Part shown: piece after piece, positions 36,892 through 62,020 of the stretch
Position numbering within the stretch: position 1 is the stretch's first letter
Layout: every line of letters starts with the position of its first letter
Source: Eledone cirrhosa
Lineage: Eukaryota
Assembly: GCA_964016885.1 (NCBI GenBank)
Contig: OZ024749.1
Span: 46,934,001 to 46,998,000, forward strand
Length of the DNA stretch: 64,000 nucleotides
Reading direction: 5' to 3'
Program-made: the position numbers and the translations under genes
The notes under the pieces: model-generated
What the model was told of the DNA's origin: nothing
Seen by the model: the letters and a program-made list of their open reading frames with translations, nothing else
The model's database searches: none

Positions 36892-36938
36892 ATTCTACAG
36901 GACTAGAACTGTTTCATTCTTTAGAAATCATCAGGAAT
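36892..36938 (-). ncRNA. type I hammerhead (U.U at stem II base)
   Basis: Exact reverse complement of 37906-37952. Confidence 0.8.
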
Positions 36939-37905
36939 ATGGGTATCAACAAATAAGTATGGTATTTATAGGTCTCTACAAGTGGTAGGAGAGGGTGGGC
37001 AGTGGGATGGGTGTAGGTCATTGGTTGATAGAAAAGGGAATTCATTAAAAGCTAATTCTACAAAGCTATAGTTTATTTTTATTTTTAGAGTAACAAAGGC
37101 AGAAAGAATTCTATAAAGAGGTTCGGGATGGCATGCTACTCCTTATTATTAAGTTCCTCTTAAGCTAACAGGTGTCTATAAGATCACCGGGGGTCAGTCA
37201 TGGTAGATAGATTAAAGAAAAGGGAGATTCTTTAAAAGATAAATTCTTTAAGGTTCTACTAAGTGACAAAGTTTTAGAGAATTCTGTAGACAAATTCAAA
37301 ATATTAAGTGCATATCTTACAATTATATTCAAATTTCTCTTAAACTATTCAACCATATACCAAAAATCAACAGACACATTCACAAAACACACTCACTCAC
37401 ACACTCGCGCGCACCCATAAACACACATACACATACACACATACACATATACACACACACACATATAAATATATTTATATATATATATATATATATATAT
37501 ATATATATATATATATATATATATATATATATACATACACACACATACATACACACATATGTATATATATATATATACACACACACACACACATATACAT
37601 ATATATAATGAAAAATTGAACGGGAACAAAACAGAGAGGCAGTACAAACAAATGTTTATTAATTTAGACACCTGTTAGCTTAAGAGAAACTTAATAATAA
37701 GGGTGGCATGCCATCCTGAACCTGTTTATATAATTATTTCTGCCTTTGTTACTCTAAAAATAAAACAATTAACTATAGCTTTGTAGAATTAGCTTTTAAT
37801 GAATTCCCTTTTCTATCAGCCAATGACCTACACCCATCCCACACCCCACCCTCTCCTACCACTTGTAGAGACCTATAAATACCATACTTATTTTTTGATA
37901 CCCAT

Positions 37906-37952
37906 ATTCCTGATGATTTCTAAAGAATGAAACAGTTCTAGTCCTGTAGAAT
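37906..37952 (+). ncRNA. type I hammerhead (U.U at stem II base)
   Basis: ATTC CTGATGA T TTC taaa GAA T GAAA CAG ttctagtc CTG TA GAAT. Confidence 0.8.
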
Positions 37953-38269
37953 CTCATCTATATTAAAACTATATATATATATATATATATGTATATATAT
38001 ATATAAACCTAAATAAACATATATATATGTATATATATATTTCTTCAGATTTGTTGGTTCACCACTGGATAGAGTTGATCATTTCGTATGGTAAATCATG
38101 GTGTAATATTGTGGAGAGTACTCAACGTAGTGCAGTTCACCCGTCTTCGTTTGTGTAGTTGGTGTTGCGAATACGGAGTTAATTATAAATAAAATAACAG
38201 AAGCCTGGACTGGTGTATTTTGGTGTAATATTGTGGAGAGTACCCAACGTATTCCTTTGTAATATTCCA

Positions 38270-57437: not shown

Positions 57438-57553
57438 TTATAGACCTAACTGTATAAACGCTAGAAATCATTGACCTAACTGTTAAGACGCTAAAAAAGA
57501 TAGACTTAACAGTAAAAACGCTAGAAATTATAGACATAATTGTAAACACGCTA
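57438..57553. repeat. 30-bp minisatellite, ~4 copies
   Basis: TAGACCTAACTGT...AACGCTAGAAA units at 57441, 57471, 57501 and 57531. Confidence 0.85.
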
Positions 57554-60340
57554 TATTTCACTTGATGTATGTATATGCTACATGTCTAGCAAGAGGACAT
57601 TGGTATATTGTCATGTCCAGGTTAGCTGACTAACAGTGTGGATACAATATATATATATATATATATATATATATTGTAATATTCATATTGCAAAATCATG
57701 TTACAATTGTTCGGTAGACCTAACTTAATAAAAGTATTTAATATATAAAATGCCAGTTCCATAATATACTACAATTTATTTGAATGATAAGACTCCACAA
57801 TTCAACCATATCGTTCTTACTATTAAAAACAAAATCTAGATACATACGCTGATATCATTTGAGGATTTTAAGATCCATATCAGTTCTGAATGAAAAACAC
57901 CACTGCCCAGATTGACTCCAGATATTACCAGCTTTTCGCCCTAGAATATTTACAACTTTACCGTAATGGATTTCCACTTATTTTTTACATTAGTGTAGTT
58001 AATGATTTCCACAATTTGACGCAATTTAAATGAATGCCTAATTGCCAATTGGTTGCTCCGATATATTGGGGAGATGTCTATAATCTGGGCATTTGCTACG
58101 AATATTATCGTTTCCAACCCAGTTACTTCTGGAAAGTTATATATTAATTATATATGCATTGATGGAAGAAATAAATATGTGCAATAGTTCATGTAACATG
58201 AAGCGCTGGTGTAGCTCTGATAACAGATCGGTAAAATCAATAACTTATATCATATAATTACATCCATTTACATTCAGATTTCAAAAATAAACTTTGCCTT
58301 TCAATCTTTCTAATATTGATATTATATATAGCAGTCGGACATACATGTTGATTAAACTCAGTTCCATCGCTAGACCTAGAAATCAATATATTATATATCA
58401 CATGCTTGTGTAAGCATATATAAGAGCTTTGCCTCTGTTGAATATATGATCTAAAATGTGTATGCATGTATATCAATGCAACAACCCTCTTCTCTGCAGG
58501 AGCTTCCATTATTTCGTTTGTGTCATGGTTACTTTCTAGAATGTGTCCAGGTATATTGAACAATTTCTGTGAGTCAGTATCCTTTTTTAACATTAACATT
58601 TATAAGGGTTATATGTATGACGTTGCCATGGCAGTATGAAGATGTGTAAAACTTGTATCTATACGATGTAGATTTCTATACTAGGAAGGTTACAGCGAAT
58701 TATAGATAGTTATGGTGGAATTGACCTATGGTGGAAGTTAATAAAGTGAAAATGTTATCATATCTGATGTCTCTTCTCATGAACACCTTGCATGTTACAA
58801 TTTAAACAATGATTATATGGACGCATATCAACAATTAAATGTTTTATTGTAATATCAGGTGGAGAAGATCAAGTATCTTGGGACGATTTTCCGCTACTTC
58901 TCCGATTAGAAATCACAACTCTAATGCTACGTAAACGGGTTAGGAATGACACAGTGAAGAATATATGGATATAATTTACGGACAAAGAAACCGAAAAGAC
59001 ACCAAAGCATTGATCCTGAGCAAAATGCTTCGATAACATCCATGACCTCGGCTGGGATCGCTGGGGATCAGGCCTGATCAGTTGGAAATTGTTTGTTCTG
59101 ACACATATAAACATATGGTTACATATGTGCTCCTCTAATGTCTTCCATAGCGGATAGCACATTGTCTATATGGGTATAATTCTTTTTATATATATATATA
59201 TATATATATATAGATACATATATGTACATACTGTTTGTATTGCAGAAAATGTGTGTGAAATCAGTAAAATTATTATCACCTGCTGCTTCATGATATATCA
59301 CGTAACTTTTAAAGCGTATCTCTGGCGAGATATGAGTTACATAATAAAAGTGAAAATATAGGTATATATTAAAACGGTAGGAGTAATCGATAGAATTTTA
59401 AAGAATATTCCACTCATCTATATAAGTGGAAGAATCCAATGTGTAATGAGTCATACTTTCCTTCAAGACGCCCACACACGCACACACATATACCTATTTA
59501 AATATATATATATATATATATATTTCTATATTGATATAACGCATTTTCAATGAAATGAAACACAAATGTTTATCGATAATTTATCAATTCATGTTTCTTT
59601 TTTCATACCAACGTTTTTATATGCCTTCCACAAACTATTTCAATAGAACCTCATGTTGTCGTCTTAGCAAATTATGGGAAGCAGTATTCGCACAATGAAC
59701 GAATTACGTGTTAAATAGACAAATAAGAGAAAAATATATTGCGATGAAATTGGAAATCTTACAAATCAAACTATATTAAATTGAATTCGTAAATCTGAAG
59801 AGATAAACGATATATATAATCTAGAAATGTGGAAGCTATTATGTTATACTTTCGTGTGCGAATGAAAACAAGTAGGTTCTTTGTTTTCCGAGGACACGTC
59901 TTTCGAAAGTGCCTAACTTCTCAGACTCACCAGCAATTTAAAAATCAAACGAGATAATAATACTTTTAAGTTATTTTTTTTATTATATTGGAACTTATTT
60001 TAAAGCCTGGATTGGTGTTTTAATGTCCATAAATTTGGTCAAATTATTAAAGTATATCCATTCATATCGTGGGGAACGTCTTATTTAAAACATAATACAT
60101 GTAATCAAATGAAAGCAATTAAATAGTTTGTATTTTCCAGAGGTATACTAGGCACAGTGAAGAAAATAAATCATGTCCCTGTCGTCTTGTAATTTATTTC
60201 TATTTAGAAATAAGTTCGCAATACTCTGAAGACAATGAGTGAATCGTACGAAATGCGACTTATTTTAGGTTATACTGGCTTTACAGTGAAAATACATCAT
60301 TGATGGTTTCCCATATATATATATATATATATATATATAT

Positions 60341-62020
60341 AGTAATCATAATAAATTTGAAGACTAAAATCCAAAGAGGGCTCGAAAAGGATAAATATAT
60401 ATGAAATATATAAGAACCGTAGAGCGAATATTTATTAAAATAACAAATTAAATGTTAAGCAAAAAATCGCTGCTTTCACCCTTAACGGGATCTTTTGAAA
60501 CTAACAAAGTCAATCTGTACACGCACATGTGGCTATTTCCAAAAACGTTGCAACTGGAGGAAGACAGTAAGACGATACTTTGGTTTGTGGAAACGTTGCC
60601 TGGCAAAGAACAGGAAAAAACGAATATAATACGTCATTAATAGGAGCGGTGAAAACAATTAAGCGCAAAGACAGAACCACGTTTATGGTATAAAAGAGGT
60701 CGTAGACTAATGTTCTCTTAGGTGGTTCATAAAGACGTTCTCTGGCAATGAACGAAAAAAACAAAGATAATACGTCATATGTGGAGCGTGGAGAACAATT
60801 GCACGCAAAGACAAAACCAAGTAAATGGTATAGAAGAAGTCGTAGACTAAAATTCTAACTCGGAGACCGAATGAATCTCCGCTTCGGAGTTAAGAATAAA
60901 GTAAATAAATAAAATACAGAGGTAATATAAATTAAATAAATACATACACGGATACAAATATGTACATACACAAGCATACACGAACACACTTACCATAGGT
61001 ATACAAAACCACGCACATATAAATATGTGTGTGTGTGTGTGCGTGTATACAAATAAATAAACAATTAAATAAACGTATATAAATAAATAAATACGTATAT
61101 AACAAGCGCACACACATACCTACATGTAAATACACAAATGTTCGGAGACGTAAGTCAACCAAAACATGAGGTAGATATATAAACCCTATATAAATAAAAT
61201 AAATACGTACACGCATACAAATATGTACATACACAAGCATACACGAAAACACACCCTACATACGTAAGAACCTGCATACTCACACAGACGCAAAAGTCCC
61301 GTATATACAAAATCAAACCATATGTACCAGAATATATAAAATTATACGCCATAACATATGCAATCAAATATACGTACGAGAAAGTATACGTACCTTCACA
61401 AAACATACAGGTAATATATACTTACCTATGCAAATAAGTAATAGTATGAACAAAACATATACTTAGCTACACATCAAGACGTAAAATATCCACGTATAGA
61501 TCGTACTATCCGTTAGGTTATAACGTGGGCTGTAATACAGGAATGTTTTGTGCAATTTATGTTTACAAGCCGAAATTGCGTCAGATTTTTTGTTTAAGAT
61601 GTGGTCTGTGGCGTAGTGTATTTCTAGGGTCTCAGCGGCGCAGAGGTCACATGGTCTTTTATTTCCGTTATACAATCTAGCCCTAGCTAGGATCTTCCAG
61701 TGTAACTTATATTGGGTGTGGTTGTCTTTTAGACTCCAGATAAAAGCAGAAAGTGACGTCATATTCCTTTTTAGAGGGTAACGAAAAGAATGGGTATGCA
61801 TGTAAAGACGCTGCTTGAATCTATTGTCGTTTAACCCTATGTAGGCCCTACGGGACGTGGGTGTTTGAACCTTACATTTGTAGACAATGTTACTAGAGAG
61901 GCATTTCCCGGATAGGGGGCAATCAACCCGATTCCTACAATTACAGTTAGAGAAGATCCCGGTAAGGTTGAAACCAGCCATTGTTTGCTTAAACTTTAAC
62001 CTGTTATTTTAATAAATAAA
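60341..62020 (-). mobile_element. 5'-truncated Penelope-like element (family F): endonuclease end, ~1.1-kb 3' region with a hammerhead at 60452-60502, inverted hammerhead fragment at 61951-62020
   Basis: GIY-YIG ORF, shared family tail, inverted 3' piece at the 5' junction, (TA)n flanks. Confidence 0.88.
61463..61950 (-). CDS. PLE GIY-YIG endonuclease domain (N-terminally truncated, no RT)
   Basis: CNCRxxxxCPLxGxCL, IVY..YIG, FKQRxxxH, TSLSxFIW, WKIL, CDLCxxE, LNKK..CKH; the first ~10 residues of the listed ORF come from the inverted non-coding fragment. Confidence 0.85.

Follow-up and report, generated by a model that had tools for sequence, protein, structure and literature searches.

Type I hammerhead motifs with U.U at positions 10.1 and 11.1 in probable short non-autonomous Penelope-like elements (PLEs) of Eledone cirrhosa

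A stretch of 64,000 nucleotides from Eledone cirrhosa (assembly GCA_964016885.1, contig OZ024749.1, positions 46,934,001 to 46,998,000; hereafter the window) contains hammerhead-like motifs with U.U at positions 10.1 and 11.1 in place of the usual G10.1-C11.1 pair. An earlier note had reported this step in four unrelated families, left open whether it was already described, and proposed a selected subclass tuned for slow or dimer-dependent cleavage. The locus raises the questions of whether U.U is a maintained state of these families, which elements carry it, and what it does.

Hammerhead motifs of the window

The window was scanned for type I hammerheads with a relaxed pattern and a cut-off score of at least 7, and 20 local dinucleotide shuffles were used as the null. 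Nine matches reached the cut-off, compared with a shuffle mean of 0.25 and a maximum of 2. U.U was present at 10.1/11.1 in four of the seven window families (P = 0.005 at window base composition), or in three of six when family B was omitted (P = 0.026 on the same basis); the families are not independent draws for either P value. Motifs missing from the earlier note are the G-C and C.A comparison motifs of Table 1, a motif at 45560 that reads as A.A or an extra base at 10.1/11.1, and a family of half-motifs in which position 11.1 is C (22954, 26186, 30683, and 54638).

Table 1. Features of the window, with strand and details
Feature	Position	Strand	Details
Family A type I hammerhead, intact core	36892..36938	-	U10.1 36927, U11.1 36916; predicted cut between 36896 and 36895
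Family A hammerhead, inverted arm, identical motif	37906..37952	+	U10.1 37917, U11.1 37928; predicted cut 37948/37949
Left arm, family A inverted pLTR-like repeat	36875..37178	-	element runs on to ~37386
Right arm, family A inverted repeat	37665..37969	+	ends in (TA)n; 95% identical to left arm
Family A 3' tail, one arm only	36806..36874	-	tail hairpin RCUC...UYGAGY 36848-36868, then (TA)n
Family B decayed hammerhead-like motif	38270..38327	+	G8U, 2-bp stem II, palindromic helix III
Tail hairpin on inverted partial family B copy	38118..38179	-	needs longer spacer than strict pattern
Family C type I hammerhead, intact core	54144..54186	-	U10.1 54173, U11.1 54160; triplet GUA; predicted cut 54150/54149
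Family F hammerhead-like motif, U4A	55135..55185	+	U.U 55147/55159; triplet CUU
Longest family F copy	60342..60894	-	140-bp subrepeats; motif ~60453-60502 (U4A + G5A; U.U 60490/60478); A/T tract; tail hairpin 60378-60425; (TA)n
Family F copy, 5'-truncated at motif	16848..17004	+	tail hairpin 16921-16968
Family F fragment with U.U	10925..10983	+	
Family F fragment with U.U	61945..62011	+	
Family F copy, motif 3' half deleted	46447..46854	-	
Comparison type I hammerhead	18883..18968	+	G10.1-C11.1; hammerhead scan
Comparison type I hammerhead	52882..52963	+	C.A at 10.1/11.1; palindromic helix III; second copy 53441-53522

The canonical core (C3 U4 G5 A6 N7 G8 A9, G12 A13 A14 A15.1, and U16.1 H17) was found in families A and C and was departed from in families B (G8U) and F (U4A). 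Three helices with helix I open were present, with I/II/III pairs of 4/3/4 in family A, 6/4/palindromic in family C, and 5/3/5 in most copies of family F, and with a helix II of two pairs only in family B; the helix III segments are palindromic or self-pairing. By inspection, U.U lies directly next to the paired helix II in families A, C, and F, for which no better register with an extra U and a G.U pair was available. The minimum-energy fold predicted for these three families differed from the hammerhead fold. The Rfam gathering score was reached by none of the three, the match of family C to Hammerhead_HH9 standing at 17.6 bits (E 0.076, gathering 52) and families A and F giving no hammerhead match. 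No hammerhead was present among the 150 of 263 whole-window Rfam matches listed, which were mostly microsatellites matching miRNA models.

The two family A motifs, both with the cleavage triplet GUA, were counted once, since they are the arms of one inverted repeat; the arms differ at 14 of 306 aligned columns, none of them within the motif. Reads over the motif numbered ~3,700-4,300 per bin in two RAD-seq runs, and among the 40 of 177 substitutions listed there was no majority substitution over 36874-36938 and none at all at 36916 or 36927; a minority form with G-C is compatible with this listing. Stem I variants among relatives, seen in loose read ends, keep pairing. Family C has a single copy within the window. 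In family F, U.U was found in all five complete copies (10925, 16848, 55135, 60470, and 61950), half of the motif being missing in two more (46447 and 53780), and position 4 is A in each of the five copies that retain it. The family B motif scored 5.9, a score that shuffles reach 0.95 times per window, which is the chance level; with G8U, a stem II of only two pairs, and a loop of some length, the motif has an uncertain U.U register. Recurrence of U.U was thus borne out for families A, C, and F and left uncertain for family B. The family B motif and the 60470 copy of family F are probably dead, and family F itself (U4A, CUU) would be weak at best.

Neutral decay, whether by mutation of G-C motifs to U in a genome rich in A and T or by hitch-hiking amplification of an inert master with U.U, would fit the extra core changes of families B and F, the genome GC content of ~31%, and the amplification of PLE clades that have no canonical hammerheads. 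Against it stand the presence of U.U in all complete copies, the intact stems of families A and C, the pairing-compatible variation of stem I in relatives, and the tally above base composition, and as a general explanation it is highly improbable; for family F alone, it is plausible. U.U is better described as a maintained family-level state, as the earlier note had held against AT-biased decay.

3' layout and element class

Families A, B, and F have the 3' layout of Hydra-clade PLEs, in which the hammerhead is followed by an A/T tract, a tail hairpin, and a (TA)n target. The tail hairpin lies 3' of the motif in all three families, and its strict pattern was matched at six sites against 0.45 expected from 100 shuffles. 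A like hairpin terminates three Hydra-clade consensi in the files of Craig et al. 2021; a similar one occurs in an entry that is apparently of the Naiad file, and the hairpin is therefore not diagnostic of the clade. Families A, B, C, and F all adjoin or sit between (TA)n, insertion into which is not unique to the Hydra clade according to the PLE literature. Family C extends for only ~100 nt before (TA)n, with no tail hairpin within 142 nt downstream. The shared hairpin is the only item here that may be unreported: the available passages on PLEs and hammerheads hold no description of it.

Family A follows the general PLE pattern: its pLTR-like 3' end carries the hammerhead, its copies are inverted or in partial tandem, and a tail is present at one end only. 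CCAAT- and TATA-like words lie upstream of the hammerhead in its left arm and ATTAAA lies downstream, and tandem motif units of 72/77 nt were present in reads as rare joints. A GIY-YIG C-terminal remnant suspected by eye at 37130-37390 was rejected after Pfam searches in three frames returned nothing; this segment resembles an internal pLTR repeat that has diverged. [quoted passage not shown] The tandem array of non-LTR retrozymes (~300-bp repeats, each with a type I hammerhead) was found for none of families A, B, C, and F.

BLAST between the window families detected no similarity. The description of the four families as unrelated is doubtful, given the 3' architecture and tail hairpin common to families A, B, and F and the broken motif of family B. 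The motifs are probably the 3'-end type I hammerheads, located in the pseudo-LTR (pLTR) region, of short non-autonomous PLEs that insert into (TA)n and most resemble the Hydra clade, with U.U fixed in master elements and amplified along with them.

U.U in other hammerheads and its possible role

The U.U variant is already in print, in main texts as well as supplementary tables. An active natural U10.1-U11.1 hammerhead was included among the active core variants of Perreault et al. 2011 (PMC3088659), where U.U was the most active mispair at 10.1/11.1 and where the search pipeline rejected mispairs at this step by default unless they had been tested; from the text of Fig. S6, this hammerhead appears to be that of phage PaP3. 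In File S2 of Craig et al. 2021 (PMC8557442), 25 Hydra-clade families read U.U in 14, G-C in 7, G.U in 2, U.C in 1, and another state in 1, with the same register in all but this last row and with (TA)n favoured by nearly all; 11 of the 14 U.U rows come from one species, two of them with the same motif. The available main-text passages of that paper call the motifs canonical and leave U.U unmentioned, and those of Roberts 2023 hold nothing on the 10.1-11.1 pair. U.U is also read in the Hydra and D. willistoni rows of the PLE minimal hammerheads of Cervera & de la Peña 2014 (PMC4209133, Fig. S3/S5), and a U U mismatch at the helix II base is reported for axolotl HHR_Amex2 of retrozyme Rtz353, present in ~60,000 copies (Cervera & de la Peña 2020, PMC7229834).

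Among phage hammerheads of one loop class, U.U was present at 19 of 29 loci and A.A at 6; this count refers to a single loop sequence and a single arm length, both picked once U.U matches had been seen, and is not a phage-wide frequency. Helix III has at least 6 pairs, and can form in the monomer, in 11 of the 19 U.U motifs. A hammerhead match in Rfam was obtained for one of 13 phage U.U motifs, below gathering as in the window. A metagenome scan, with at least 112 loci listed, gave 6 that passed the structure filter; an extra U with G.U (one with G-C) is a better reading of them than U.U, and they were not counted. Four loci passed the same filter among at least 120 listed in a loose viral scan, and a viral pattern with 4-base arms was set aside after returning four identical loci with unpaired arms.

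These occurrences bear on convergence, under which each family would have arrived at U.U on its own, as the state most easily tolerated, starting from G-C hammerheads that belonged to different PLE clades or to retrozymes; the function would be the same, with no shared Hydra-clade origin. It would account for the lack of BLAST similarity, the missing hairpin of family C, the recurrence of U.U in phages, D. willistoni, and axolotl (all outside the Hydra clade), and the exchange of G.U and U.U between near-identical phage loci (L257 vs L239/L249). The tail hairpin and (TA)n target common to families A, B, and F, together with helix III sequences and a U17 like those of Hydra-clade rows, make it unlikely.

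In the axolotl, HHR_Amex2 cleaved to 22% in 1 h as a monomer and far more as a dimer, and its sister family, for which such a mismatch is undescribed, to 6% as a monomer (PMC7229834). Slow monomer and better dimer cleavage, as the earlier note proposed, is consistent with this single tested animal U.U family; U.U as the tuning for dimer dependence was not borne out by the same percentages or by the monomer-capable helix III of 11 of the 19 phage motifs. Dimer dependence tracks helix III, not U.U. Selection for U.U itself, as a switch that limits the rate or enforces dimers and defines a functional subclass, would agree with the excess of U.U over other mismatches (14 vs 1 in the Hydra clade; 19 vs 6 for A.A at the phage loci) and with the weak helix III of the animal examples. 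The preference also follows from the activity of U.U, the highest among the mispairs, and low activity with dimer use is general to PLE hammerheads, those with G-C included; taken with the axolotl and phage data, this makes a selected switch quite improbable.

In the putative PLE derivatives favoured here, U10.1.U11.1 would stand in for G10.1-C11.1 where helix II begins, beside the sheared A9.G12, as the best-tolerated non-pair at this position, and would be reached from G-C via G.U. Published U.U hammerheads cut, the animal one weakly as a monomer. Families A and C are expected to cut slowly after GUA, and better once two copies pair via helix III. Slow cutting could let the 3' motif persist in part of the RNA and so might allow its copying by a trans-acting RT.

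Significance and comparison with known systems

The U.U variant itself adds little, having been published and assayed already. On a tentative reading, it would be no rare oddity but would mark a large hammerhead class, under-counted and overlooked where descriptors insist on a pair, and would be the state of most Hydra-clade PLE families and of most loci in one phage loop class; on the same tentative reading, the genome holds abundant uncatalogued non-autonomous derivatives, and the tail hairpin (RCUC-stem-UY-GAGY) that they have in common with Hydra-clade elements may be the cis signal for RT/endonuclease at (TA)n. Searches that demand a 10.1-11.1 pair overlook whole high-copy families, and U.U in combination with the (TA)n target and tail hairpin may help to place ORF-less repeats in a PLE clade. 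Should the hairpin act as a signal for trans-mobilisation, it would make the recognition of their RNA by PLEs accessible to experiment.

Among published hammerheads, four systems come nearest to the window motifs. The natural hammerhead of Perreault et al. 2011 has the same mismatch as the window and differs by its phage context. Axolotl HHR_Amex2 is likewise a high-copy animal type I hammerhead with U.U, its slow monomer and efficient dimer being axolotl data; Rtz353 consists of tandem repeats of ~350 bp and is expressed in the form of circular RNA, whereas copies in the window lie dispersed or in inverted orientation and are known from DNA. The PLE hammerheads of PMC4209133 share with the window their pLTR location and palindromic helix III, and they show low activity and opposite-strand pairs 100-700 bp apart; their consensus has an extra base and G10.1-C11.1 where the window has U.U. 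Unlike the Hydra-clade PLEs of PMC8557442, the window families have no ORF, families A and F carry 8-9 nt loops on helix III, and the U4A of family F is absent from the published table. In common with these elements, they have a type I motif close to the 3' terminus, a short helix II, a helix III that is likewise short and similar in sequence, a position 17 occupied by A or U, insertion at (TA)n, and a terminal hairpin similar to that of three consensi, and by sequence the window motifs are best regarded as further members of a known variant, carried by apparently non-autonomous PLE derivatives.

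Hammerhead motifs and their 10.1/11.1 states

The window, which looks like animal and possibly octopus DNA and has a GC content of about 31% and numerous (TA)n and (CA)n arrays, was searched using a relaxed type I scan in which one core change and a palindromic helix III were permitted. This returned 9 matches scoring at least 7 and 12 scoring at least 5.5; across 20 shuffles the corresponding means were 0.25 and 0.95. Families A and C were found to have a complete core with U at both 10.1 and 11.1, the first step of helix II, followed by three stem pairs in A and four in C. The two A motifs lie on the arms of a single inverted repeat. 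These arms differ at 14 of 306 columns, and the lack of any difference within the 47-nt motif does not reach significance (P=0.11). Family F, for which A rather than U at position 4 is a family-wide trait, has seven copies in the window, and all five complete ones carry U.U. Family B scored 5.9 and has G8U and a stem II of two pairs, which argues that it is probably a decayed motif of uncertain U.U register.

The earlier note had reported U.U in all four families, and this was largely borne out: it holds for A, C and F but is uncertain for B. With B counted, U.U occurs in 4/7 window families. The note omitted G-C, C.A, A.A-or-insertion and C11.1 motifs. Expectation from the AT-biased base composition of the window was exceeded (P=0.005; without B, 3/6, P=0.026). 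The C.A state is shared with PLE-X1_cBra, and the half-motif family looks like copies of a Penelope-like element (PLE) truncated and inverted inside helix II. A dispersed repeat of about 190 bp appeared SINE-like by eye.

Hammerhead-related and other features of the window
Feature	Position	Strand	Description
Family A motifs	36892, 37906	-, +	U.U
Family B motif	38270		Decayed (probable)
Family C motif	54144	-	U.U
Tail hairpin, RCUC-stem-UY-GAGY	36848-36868; 16921, 60378		3' of A; 3' of F
G-C type I hammerhead	18883-18968		Scan match
Nested inverted repeats	18235-19093		Surround the G-C hammerhead and a SINE-like fragment
C.A hammerhead	52882, 53441		Intact core
C.A hammerhead element	52602-53711		Tandem, partly inverted; helix II long; helix III a 10-nt palindrome
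A.A-or-insertion hammerhead-like motif	45560-45632	-	Stem I of 11 bp; extra bases ahead of helix II; helix III decayed
Half-motif family, C11.1	22954-23153, 26186-26381, 30683-30885, 54638-54756		Hammerhead 3' half and tail hairpin, as inverted repeat within (TA)n
Decayed LINE-type element	~40186-43440	+	RVT_1 match 41349-41960, E 2e-13
~190-bp dispersed repeat	12630-12823, 18562-18650, 24274-24468, 28003-28299, 35418-35544, 52157-52547		Tandem at 52145-52545
Long palindromes or inverted repeats	16646-16841, 30403-30662, 45920-46365		Three loci

Family A in genomic reads

The stretch 36806-37386 was compared, at 80% likeness, with two sets of contigs and with unassembled reads of two RAD-seq runs. 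The runs bear the species label of the best-matching data set, which had only 0.38 of the sampled words in common, and may come from the same or a close species. The runs yielded 9,811 and 9,576 matching reads, with depth per bin peaking at ~3,700-4,300 over the A motif and ranging from ~70 to 600 over 36946-37125. Among the 40 of 177 substitution rows listed, none fell within 36874-36938, which spans both U residues (36916 and 36927). Since each of these 40 rows reached about half depth or more in some run, U.U is probably the majority form of A in the reads; a minority G-C form could lie among the other 137 rows. Loose read ends revealed two longer stem I versions with an A-U versus G-C exchange on both strands, seen on each strand separately rather than as linked changes on one molecule.

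Read joints identified tandem motif units of 72 and 77 nt (33 and 37 reads in X13) and numerous strand switches inside the A motif. Strand-switch joints and truncation points were concentrated inside the hammerhead, at 36916-36938, and F and the half-motif family are likewise cut at or within the motif, as if reverse transcription frequently stops there.

U.U in phage and published hammerheads

Viral sequences were searched using a pattern that was picked after U.U matches had been seen, holds the core and a single common loop constant, leaves 10.1/11.1 free and covers one class; it located 29 loci (U.U 19, A.A 6, G-C 2, G.U 2). A perfect 4-bp stem (7 stem sequences, 14 contexts) and type I closure are seen in each of the 19 U.U loci, 11 of these have a helix III of at least 6 pairs, and near-identical loci carry G.U or U.U. 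The perfect, varied stems and the long helix III indicate that U.U is kept under stem covariation without implying dimer dependence; U.U is not the cause of such dependence. The A.A loci were L236, L237, L247, L250, L252 and L259, in four of which a perfect stem opens with G-C behind A.A. Metagenome loci L008, L039, L044, L047, L091 and L112 are PLE-like minimal hammerheads, some paired, with an extra U, a first pair G.U and a palindromic CAUG helix III.

The variant is not new: it appears in Perreault 2011 (PMC3088659; an active natural U10.1-U11.1 hammerhead), Cervera & de la Pena 2020 (PMC7229834) and PMC8557442, and the window motifs add members to it. U.U motifs cut, according to published accounts. 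The slow or dimer-dependent cleavage suggested in the earlier note is already described, in PMC7229834, for axolotl HHR_Amex2. This family of ~60,000 motifs, in which the base of helix II bears a U U mismatch, showed 22% monomer cleavage in 1 h versus 6% in its sister family, and dimer cleavage far above that of the monomer. PMC7229834 and PMC4209133 describe PLE motifs as slow and dimer-assisted regardless of the 10.1-11.1 pair. Hydra and D. willistoni rows in Cervera & de la Pena 2014 (PMC4209133) read as U.U in PDF text in which the GAAA column is separated from the rows. Craig 2021 (PMC8557442) gives 25 families of the Hydra clade, a PLE group, with U.U in 14 (11 of them from Hydra), G-C in 7, G.U in 2, U.C in 1 and another state in 1.

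The 10.1-11.1 position adjoins the sheared A9.G12 pair according to a structure paper, and U.U could be accommodated beside it as a narrow non-canonical pair. G-C to G.U to U.U would be a viable route, with U.U then reaching fixation in the master elements. Families A and C would cleave slowly, after GUA, and weak monomer cleavage would spare the 3' motif in the template for reverse transcription. Helix III segments of the window families are able to self-pair. For A, C and F alike, the minimum-energy structure was predicted to be something other than the hammerhead, and none of the three reached an Rfam threshold; self-cleavage of their RNAs is putative, and F may be inert.

Nature of the elements

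Family A has CCAAT- and TATA-like words 5' of the motif and ATTAAA on its 3' side. It is accompanied by a truncated partner in inverted orientation, and just one arm carries a tail, 70 nt long and terminating in (TA)n. This layout matches that given for PLEs in Craig 2021 (PMC8557442). The tail hairpin lies 3' of A, F and the half-motif family and on the inverted copy of B, and was absent from the 142 nt ahead of (TA)n in C. Its strict pattern matched 6 window sites versus 0.45 (maximum 2) in 100 shuffles, a contrast overstated because the pattern was derived from these same sequences. With this hairpin common to A, B and F, the description of the four families as unrelated is doubtful for three of them. 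The flanks of A, B and F yielded no remnant of an RT or endonuclease; the decayed LINE is the sole clear coding remnant detected and has no relation to the hammerheads. Based on the layout, the tail hairpin and the lack of such remnants, the elements are ORF-less PLE derivatives. The hairpin is shared with the ends of Hydra-2_Amil, Hydra-1_Ajap and Hydra-2_Ajap, and with one entry apparently of the Naiad file, and it is the Hydra clade that appears to match best, as judged only by non-coding features.
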